From assembly GCF_056746865.1 (NCBI RefSeq), contig NZ_CM163382.1: 64,000 nt of DNA; one strand, given 5' to 3'. Positions 30,001 through 33,000 of this stretch are shown here, in pieces; the first letter of the stretch is position 1; every line of letters starts with the position of its first letter. Made by a program: the position numbers.

Positions 30001-33000
30001 TGATTTCACCACTGAAACTTTCCGGGATGAGACGATTACCTGCCGCCAGTCCTTTAAGAGCGGCGTTCAGTGCCTTACGCGGGGCATTCTGCTCCAGAAA
30101 TGCATATGCCAGATGAGCGTGTATATCAATAAAGTCAGGCTCCTGTTGAGCAAGGCGTCTGAGTTTGTTGATATAACCCGTCTCACTGATTTCATCAGTG
30201 TCGTATGCATCAAGCACTTCTTCAAACTCCCCCAGTAATGGGCCAAACCAGGTATCCGGAAATACGAAACGACCCTGGTTATTGTTCACTTCAAAGCGGG
30301 TGATGCTGCCAACTTACTGATTTAGTGTATGATGGTGTTTTTGAGGTGCTCCAGTGGCTTCTGTTTCTATCAGCTGTCCCTCCTGTTCAGCTACTGACGG
30401 GGTGGTGCGTAACGGCAAAAGCACCGCCGGACATCAGCGCTATCTCTGCTCTCACTGCCGTAAAACATGGCAACTGCAGTTCACTTACACCGCTTCTCAA
30501 CTCGGTACGCACCAGAAAATCATTGATATGGCCATGAATGGCGTTGGATGCCGGGCAACAGCCCGCATTATGGGCGTTGGCCTCAACACGATTTTACGTC
30601 ACTTAAAAAACTCAGGCCGCAGTCGGTAACCTCGCGCATACAGCCGGGCAGTGACGTCATCGTCTGCGCGGAAATGGACGAACAGTGGGGCTATGTCGGG
30701 GCTAAATCGCGCCAGTTCGCCCGGATGTTGGGACTTGAACCGAAGAACACGGCGGTGCGGAGTCCGGAGAGTAACGGCATAGCAGAGAGCTTCGTGAAAA
30801 CGATAAAGCGTGATTACATCAGTATCATGCCCAAACCAGACGGGTTAATGGCAGCAAAGAACCTTGCAGAGGCGTTCGAGCATTATAACGAATGGCATCC
30901 GCATAGTGCACTGGGTTATCGCTCGCCACGGGAATATCTACGGCAGCGGGCCAGTAATGGGTTAAGTGATAACAGGTGTCTGGAAATATAGGGGCAAATC
31001 CACTGCATGACAAAGTCATCGGGCATTATCTGAACATAAAACACTATCAATAAGTTGGAGTCATTACCGACGAAGCGATAGCGATAATGACTGAAAGCGG
31101 AAAAATAAAAACAAATTGAATAATGTGTTTGGTAATGAATTTATCGGGGGGAATTGGGCATATCTACCGCTTACGTCGAGCCGCTCACACCCGGTCAATG
31201 ACCTGACAATCTCCCGGCAAGTCCCGACGTCGGGACTTGCGCCCCTGACACCGAAAAATAGCAGGAACCCGCTCGCTACGGGTCCTCAGCTCAGTGCAAA
31301 CCTGACTCAGCTCCTGCATTGCATCCCCGAAATTACCACACTCAGTACTTCATCACCTGCCACCAATACCCGTGTCAGTCCTTCGTGACCTGACGCAATT
31401 ACCCGACTCAGAGCTTCAGAGTCAGCCGCCGGTACCTGCCCGGTGCTCGCCCCTGCGCAACCAAGATAAATCGACCATTGGCAGACTGCGATCATTCGTA
31501 TGCATCGCTGATGACGCGCCCGAAAAACGCGTTAATGTAAGTGTGGAACAATACTTTGTTACTATGCATCAAAAAAAGTATTTGAAACGTAATCGGGCAC
31601 CGTAACGATCATCGGTAATGTCACAATTACTATATCTACAGTTACTATCCAGAATTGAGTAATAAGCCCCGAGGTAAATATTAAAGTTCTCCATATCCAT
31701 CACATTAGCAAACTGATAAGATGCATGAATGGTGTGAATGTTGTATATTCCTTCACCATCAATCCAGCAACCATTATTACACACGACACCACTAAATTCA
31801 TCAATCTTATTATGTGCGTAGATATAACCCAGTTCGAAACGTTTCCACAGAGCATTAATACTGGCAGTGAAATCTTTCTCATTACTGGCATCCAAATAGG
31901 CGGTATTAAGAGTAACCACGATGCCATTTTCCGGATCTGTTTTCAGACCGTTCCATGTCATGCTAATACCATAACCGGAACGATTGGACTGATCGACAAA
32001 ATTCCCCTTATTATCGGTATAGCCATAAGCATTTTTTACCACGTTCGCTTCCATCGCTGCGGAGACTGTGAATTCTTCCGTTGGCGACCAGGCAATTACC
32101 GGGCGCAGATAAGCGACATTTTTCTGCTGCTCCATATATCGTCCATGATAATTACCGTTATTATATAAAGATGTTCCGTCTTCAAGTAACGTGTTTAACT
32201 CAAAATACCAGTTATCGAGTTGTTTACTGATGAGGAAATTACCACCAGCGTCAGAACGACCGCGTCCCTCTTTCATCATATAGATATAACCACGGCCATC
32301 AGCATAAATATCATTAGCTGTATTACCGGAATACTCAATGAAAGTATCCTGATTTAGAGGGAACATATCGTAAGCTTCAAAACGACCGACTTTCACTTTC
32401 CACTCGTCATCTTTTCCAAAAAAGAATAATGCATCATCAATATTCACTGAACCGTGCATATCCGCCAGTGGTTGTGCTGAAAATCCAGCGAAATAACCAT
32501 TATCAAGCTTACGGGTACCGTCAAAACCTAATAGAATACGGCCATTAAGGTCCCACCGTTCATTCACTGACTCACTGTTCGCCCCGGAACTTATCATTAC
32601 TAACTGACCGGGTTTACTGGCAGCATCTATATTAAACTCCACATCACCATAAAACTTCAAATCATTGTAACCAGAGAGCAGAAAACCTGGAGAAGATGTT
32701 TTTTCTTTTGTTGACTCAACTACTGCATAGCTGTTAGCATCTTTTTTATTCTGCTCTGAACTAATTTGACGTATTTCAGAATGTTGTTCTATATCAAAAC
32801 TCTTTAACATTCTTTCTGCTTTTTCCGCCCTTTTTTCTGCAGCTTCCAGGCGTTCTTCCAGCAATGCCATTCTTTGTTCAAGCGTTAGCCCCCCTGTTTT
32901 TGCTGCACACGCATTGTATTCCAGTAATAAAAAAAGAGATAAACCCAAAAGTAACTTATTCATTTTACCCCCTTAAATAAAAACAAATGTGGGTACTCTT

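Follow-up and report, generated by a model that had tools for sequence, protein, structure and literature searches.

A 770-bp IS1-IS2-IS1 chimera in the chromosomal raf island of Escherichia coli is probably the inactive scar of a nested insertion

The insertion sequence at 30299–31068 of the window (the whole 64,000-nucleotide stretch of contig NZ_CM163382.1 that was analysed) is a chimera of IS1 and IS2, and the comparisons reported here make it probable that it is the scar of a nested insertion: an IS2 would have inserted into an IS1, a deletion would have followed, and the inactive remnant would have been inherited with the genomic island in which it lies. The window was compared by BLAST with IS1A (768 bp) and IS2A (1331 bp) of K-12. 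As shown in Table 1, the element consists of three segments in the order IS1-IS2-IS1, and the matches were far above chance (E = 0 for IS1 and 1e-143 for IS2). The segment coordinates confirmed the length of 770 bp given in a preliminary description of this DNA; its closeness to the 768 bp of IS1 is a coincidence.

Table 1. Features of the chimera and its surroundings, in window coordinates
Feature	Position	Strand	Basis or remark
Second IS2 copy, positions 1–1253, cut by the window start	1–1253	-	Linked to the cytochrome b562-like gene
Left flank: tetratricopeptide-repeat (TPR) gene	about 29270–30298/30304	-	First 5 codons and promoter/upstream region cut off at the IS1 left end
IS1 1–417	30299–30715	+	416/417 identical to K-12 IS1A, 1 mismatch
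IS1 left inverted repeat	30299–30321	+	Sequence
insA promoter-like site	30306–30333	+	Promoter scan
insA, 91 aa	30354–30629	+	Complete; Pfam domains Zn_ribbon_InsA and HTH_Tnp_IS1
Fusion ORF, InsB' N terminus/IS2 OrfB C terminus, 147 codons, in frame	30548–30991	+	ORF call
A6C frameshift motif	30605–30611	+	Intact, read from sequence
CGCCAG deletion junction	30710–30715	+	Common to IS1 412–417 and canonical IS2A 1039–1044
IS2 1045–1331	30716–31002	+	~96% to IS2A; 3' end of orfB (insD) and right inverted repeat
IS1 703–768, including right inverted repeat	31003–31068	+	66/66 identical to IS1A
CTGCA	31003–31007	+	Copy of the 5-bp IS2 target duplication that is expected to survive
Right flank: raf module (rafY, rafD, rafB, rafA, rafR)	31069–39184	-	Always linked to the IS1 tail
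IS2 left-end remnant, 41 bp	39185–39225	+	38/41 to IS2A 1–41; between rafR and the island integrase gene

Both terminal inverted repeats of IS1 (~23 bp) are present with termini identical to those of IS1A, and the BLAST matches to IS1 1–417 and 703–768 bear out the authentic left and right IS1 ends of the preliminary description. That description had also placed the last 288 bp of IS2 in the middle of insB, ending at 31003. The IS2 segment is indeed there, but its unambiguous length is 287 bp (at most 293 bp with the shared hexamer), and the IS2 right terminus, ...GGGGCAAATCCA, has its last base at 31002. At its other end the BLAST alignment to IS2 reaches back to 30699 via weak similarity.

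Compared with IS1 (IS1 family, IS1A of K-12), the chimera matches 1–417 at 99.8% and 703–768 at 100% and retains the inverted repeats, insA and the A6C motif, but it lacks IS1 418–702, that is, most of insB' and with it the InsAB' catalytic domain, has no 8–9-bp target duplication and is not autonomous. Compared with IS2 (IS3 family, 1331 bp), it keeps 287 bp at the right end, with the terminal repeat (IRR) and the orfB stop, at ~96% identity to IS2A and nearly identical to the full-length IS2 found at the same site in 18 genomes, whereas the left end with the second terminal repeat (IRL), orfA, the frameshift region and ~70% of orfB are gone. The left copy of the IS2 target duplication would be missing because it lay within the deleted segment.

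The coding content of the element points to loss of function. As the preliminary description stated, insA is intact, with a full ORF and both Pfam InsA domains; InsA has a single substitution, P50L. An InsAB' transposase made by -1 frameshifting could not be read from the element: insA and the A6C motif are intact, but insB' is truncated after ~57 codons, where the IS1 part ends at 30715. In a Pfam search of the fusion ORF, only positions 1–24 of the 131 in the DDE_Tnp_IS1 profile were covered, and the IS2 OrfB remainder amounted to the C-terminal tail of rve_3 only, the full DDE (rve) core being absent. The ORF lacks the regions of two of the three catalytic residues. This fusion arose as a side product of the deletion, in frame by chance; PGAP annotates it as a partial pseudogene and still labels the insA part “IS1 family transposase.” Because only 24 of 131 profile positions are left of the IS1 catalytic domain and IS2 OrfB is reduced to its C-terminal end, the element cannot transpose by itself. 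Expression of InsA and mobilization in trans are nevertheless conceivable because insA, its promoter-like site, the A6C motif and both IS1 ends survive. On the minus strand, a promoter-like site (31013–30985; TTGTCA, 17 nt, TATATT; 10 of 12) spans the joint between the IS1 tail and the IS2 end and is directed antisense into the IS2 fragment; it was rejected as a hybrid promoter, the number of such sites being that of shuffled sequence.

Other genomes preserve the inner element in full. In 18 complete genomes, the right end of a 1331-bp IS2 lies directly against IS1 703, after which come the same 66-bp IS1 tail and the raf flank, and positions 30710–34000 of the window are 99.8% identical to this arrangement in strain PKF4. 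Taken together, these 18 genomes and this identity indicate that a complete IS2 once stood at the junction of IS2-IRR with IS1 703, of which the window carries a truncated derivative. BLAST places the IS2 segment between colinear outer IS1 sequence on both sides, as expected of a nested insertion for which the 18 genomes supply the full inner element. Among species-representative genomes the IS2/IS1-703 junction was absent.

Five of the full-length copies at the junction were compared in an alignment and SNP table and by inspection of their left flanks. The IS2 alleles of the chimera are those of the raf-linked variant and are closest to the copies in EC17CM2 and EC25. The full-length copies are SNP mosaics: the b562-linked IS2, represented in the window by the copy at 1–1253, supplies the left part in PKF4, 1517k and 702/18, and the crossovers lie at three different positions in the three genomes. 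We read this as the signature of repeated homologous recombination between IS2 copies, which would have reshuffled the island and in which the IS2 at 1–1253 would correspond to the copy with which the raf-linked IS2 recombined in other genomes. The left neighbors of the full-length IS2 were a b562-like gene, ireA or a lysozyme-inhibitor gene; in all five copies inspected the left flanks were unrelated, with no CTGCA repeat and no IS1 head. Because the raf-linked variant occurs in mosaics, recombination between IS2 copies would account for these differing flanks.

The partner copy belongs to a module at 1–2972 that comprises IS2 1–1253 (minus strand), a cytochrome b562-like region (1254–2204) and a divergent IS1 (2205–2972, minus strand, 96% to IS1A). 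The module, which is followed by relB and a type I restriction-modification system, is 99.94% identical to a module in PKF4. There it is inverted and adjoins the IS1 tail and raf directly, and its IS2 is an SNP hybrid of the 1–1253 and raf-linked copies. A simple inversion between the two IS2 copies might have given rise to the PKF4 arrangement, and the hybrid pattern fits it, but the reciprocal junction was absent and PKF4 has no TPR module close by. The IS1 that lies upstream of the b562-like gene was also considered as the source of the chimera head, by a deletion running to IS2 in a PKF4-like arrangement, and was rejected at only 92.8% identity to that head. Both forms occur together in EC17CM2 (L013) and in NZ_AP038243.1 (HCM-27C-1), where the chimera stands by one raf copy and the full-length IS2 by another raf copy at a second site.

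The preliminary description had proposed looking for the same junction in other genomes. A 120-bp probe across the deletion joint found it contiguous in 235 of 5,426 complete E. coli genomes (~4%), in 246 places, all of them chromosomal and none on plasmids, and four JGI metagenome contigs have the same chimera structure. With 150 bp of each flank, the chimera was present at 99.5–100% identity in 231 complete E. coli genomes; it differs from its relatives by 0–4 substitutions. No plasmid in PLSDB carried the chimera with the raf flank. In one of the metagenome contigs (L019), the surrounding 4 kb were 97% identical to the window and the junctions were identical, with four differences within the chimera. 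Because the junction is identical even where the flanks of a metagenome contig are 3% diverged, a single old event appears to lie behind the chimera, which has had time to spread and to undergo modification. In strain EC9952, an ISEc12 (IS21 family) lies within the IS2 part, with 9 bp (the equivalent of window 30832–30840) on both sides; this ISEc12 (L022, 5692–8270) is a third level of IS nesting.

Eleven genomes have two copies. Strain LS45 has a complete copy of the island at pheV, and a second chimera, with identical neighbors on both sides, lies at another place in its genome; one genome has the chimera junction at both pheV and pheU. The two-copy genomes are whole-island duplicates and not transpositions. 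A MITE-like IS1 derivative would be found at a number of unrelated loci and be flanked at each by a target duplication of its own; all 246 copies of the chimera share the raf-side flank. The junction has been public at least since SMS-3-5 (NC_010498), and our literature search found no paper describing it.

The island lies next to a tRNA-Phe gene (40671–40746) and has a P4-type integrase gene. Its order is integrase, 41-bp IS2 left-end remnant, rafR-rafA-rafB-rafD-rafY, chimera, TPR gene, phosphoethanolamine transferase gene and tia. The site is pheU (dsbD side) in the window and pheV (yqgA/speC side) in other genomes. The 41-bp remnant has the same orientation as the IS2 fragment of the chimera and is conserved in all related genomes inspected. 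The raf operon therefore has the inner end of an IS2 on each side, the two copies being in direct orientation, a layout that resembles a decayed IS2 composite transposon. A plasmid origin was rejected: besides the negative PLSDB search, plasmid raf copies (e.g. pW170_2) are homologous only from 31439 onward and have IS1 differently placed.

On the other side of the chimera, a homologue of the TPR gene in the selC island of strain 2D runs 15 nt further (MNDRLRFEV...) than the gene truncated by the IS1 left end. In other genomes PGAP calls this truncated gene intact and puts its start within the terminal repeat of IS1. The 9-bp sequences that border IS1 on its two sides, TTCAAAGCG and GACGAAGCG, agree at six of nine positions and are no duplication, and a query made of the flanks only found no genome in which the two are contiguous. 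Because the TPR gene is truncated, no target duplication is present and the flanks are never contiguous, IS1 appears to stand at the joint of two island modules rather than to have entered by simple insertion.

Homology on the left side breaks off exactly at the IS1 left end in SMS-3-5 and GPEC1210; for VTB96933v such a break is indicated by alignment coordinates only. The left DNA is replaced there at the first base of the IS1 left end (position 5001 in L021, SMS-3-5, and in L023, GPEC1210; also in NZ_CP178659.1), and in a few genomes the replacing DNA is an ICE remnant or an HTH/malic-enzyme region. This suggests that the left flank was replaced after the chimera had formed, possibly by a rearrangement mediated in trans through the IS1 end or by recombination between IS1 copies.

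We propose the following history. An IS1 of the IS1A type would have come to stand, in the tRNA-Phe island, where the tia/phosphoethanolamine-transferase/TPR module meets the raf module. IS2 would then have inserted into it, duplicating IS1 703–707 (CTGCA) and giving a composite of 2,104 bp (768 + 1331 + 5). One deletion of ~1,334 bp would next have removed IS1 418–707 and IS2 1–1044 and joined IS1 417 to IS2 1045, with its endpoints within a short common sequence (CGCCAG, or only CAG in the true parent), after which the remnant would have been carried passively with the island. The order of these events, the derivation of head and tail from one IS1 and the enzymology of the deletion are what we infer from the comparisons; the IS2 insertion followed by a microhomology-mediated deletion, as put forward in the preliminary description, gains support from the 18 genomes with a full IS2 at the same junction and from deletion endpoints that lie off the IS ends.

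The extent of the homology merits closer attention. The preliminary description placed the left junction on a hexamer shared by both elements, which holds against canonical IS1 and IS2A, and CGCCAG occurs only once in IS1. In four of the five full-length IS2 copies inspected at the same site, however, position 1041 is a G, which changes the motif to CGGCAG. Because these relatives carry CGGCAG, the uninterrupted overlap in the true parent may have been CAG only (30713–30715; 3 bp, or 5 of 6). At a random junction, an overlap of at least 6 bp was computed to arise by chance in ~0.1% of cases and one of at least 3 bp in ~5%. Because neither deletion endpoint is at an IS terminus, the deletion was most likely not made by a transposase and would have arisen by microhomology-guided end joining or by slippage during replication. 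This reading is based on the RecA-independent deletions known to occur in E. coli between short direct repeats. Endpoints in 3–6 bp of common sequence, ~1.3 kb apart and off the transposase cleavage sites, resemble the products of short-homology illegitimate recombination or alternative end joining, among which a product such as the chimera does not identify the pathway.

The right half of the two-step history, the joint of the IS2 right end with IS1 703, is thus found in full, but its left half, the joint of IS1...707 with the IS2 left end, is missing from every dataset searched. The junction that the precursor should have had on its left, TCAAAATCGGTGGAGCTGCA followed by TAGACTGGCCCC, had no contiguous match at E ≤ 1e-30 in the 5,426 E. 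coli genomes, where apparent matches were false and consisted of two separate pieces, and it was absent from 100,044 GTDB species-representative genomes and from the JGI metagenomes. An undeleted precursor with both junctions was therefore seen in none of the collections searched. A query of the TPR flank with a full IS1 gave two-piece matches of the wrong span, and no genome had an intact IS1 at the TPR junction. These absences, to which the empty site is to be added, count against the nested-scar history, as do the lack of an IS1 target duplication and the unrelated left flanks of all five full-length IS2 copies.

The same observations lend some weight to a different origin, which we consider possible though clearly less probable, in which two IS1 copies took part: a TPR-linked IS1, broken at position 417, would have been joined illegitimately to a raf-linked IS2 at position 1044, fusing the modules in one step. 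In its details, to which we give the same modest credence, the raf module would originally have had only an IS2 with a 66-bp IS1 tail, and the joint would have been a larger deletion or an intermolecular one. IS1 has no target duplication and its flanks come from different modules; the intact IS1 at the TPR junction and the IS1-707/IS2 junction are absent everywhere searched; the unit of IS2, IS1 tail and raf has at least three other left contexts; and the 66-bp tail, being invariant among IS1 variants, cannot be traced to the copy from which the head came. This origin needs, however, an extra IS1 copy in the right orientation, and the other left contexts are explained by IS2-IS2 recombination, given the SNP mosaics with crossovers at different positions. 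Further, the head and the tail have the colinear order and the shared orientation that a single element would show.

A variant of the deletion step seems unlikely, namely end joining at microhomologies of the type promoted by the IS-excision enhancer (IEE) and triggered by cleavage by the IS2 or IS1 transposase. According to a review, IEE promotes excision of IS3-family and IS1 elements and carries out microhomology-mediated end joining in vitro with overlaps of 2–6 nt, but transposase-initiated events start at an IS terminus, where neither endpoint of this deletion lies.

Slightly less likely still is the idea that the element has been kept because it is useful, as a mini-IS1 mobilizable in trans, as a stand-alone InsA repressor of IS1 transposition or as an InsA-InsB'-OrfB regulator. 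The intact IS1 ends, insA promoter-like site, insA and A6C motif fit this idea, as do the in-frame deletion joint and the change of the left flank exactly at the IS1 end in SMS-3-5 and GPEC1210 (in VTB96933v by alignment coordinates only). All 246 copies nevertheless keep the raf-side flank, with the two-copy genomes being island duplicates; the 0–4 substitutions among relatives are so few that conservation is silent on selection; and the fusion ORF lacks the regions of two of the three catalytic residues. In its most specific form, a stand-alone insA repressor cassette with functional IS1 ends that lowers IS1 activity in its carriers and whose left end drove the flank replacements in SMS-3-5 and GPEC1210, we think it more doubtful again. 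If it were true, the element would be a hot spot that reshuffles raf-island modules, and an InsA-InsB'-OrfB frameshift product might be a second regulatory protein. Last, a misassembly from collapsed IS1 and IS2 repeats, a question raised by the multiple copies of both elements in these genomes and for which no positive support was found, is refuted for the structure as such by the identical junction in 235 independently assembled complete genomes and four metagenome contigs and by the derivatives with ISEc12 inside the IS2 part, although an error in this particular assembly could be revealed by reads of the source strain alone.

Nested, eroded insertion sequences at module boundaries of tRNA-linked islands are commonplace. 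The nested-scar history makes the chimera one more of them: an interrupted IS, eroded by deletion, that lies between functional modules and to which further ISs have been added (ISEc12 in EC9952). There is no difference in kind; what is particular is that both outer IS1 ends survive, so that the remnant mimics the size of an intact IS1. The chimera is probably an ordinary nested-IS scar, and both its components are textbook elements.

Many carriers of the chromosomal raf island are poultry isolates. A genome-wide association study of 2026 reported rafY, hsdR, a cobalamin adenosyltransferase gene and a c-type lysozyme inhibitor gene as chicken-associated (PMC12987596); in the genomes seen here, these genes are on or next to the raf island.

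The significance of the chimera lies mainly in annotation, where the match in size, 770 against 768 bp, can hide a dead IS1. It also gives a clear natural instance of very short repeats serving as deletion endpoints within nested insertion sequences. Because it marks a single old event, the chimera may serve as a lineage marker for the chromosomal raf (raffinose) island at pheV/pheU, which is found with it in ~4% of complete E. coli genomes, with poultry as the source of many.
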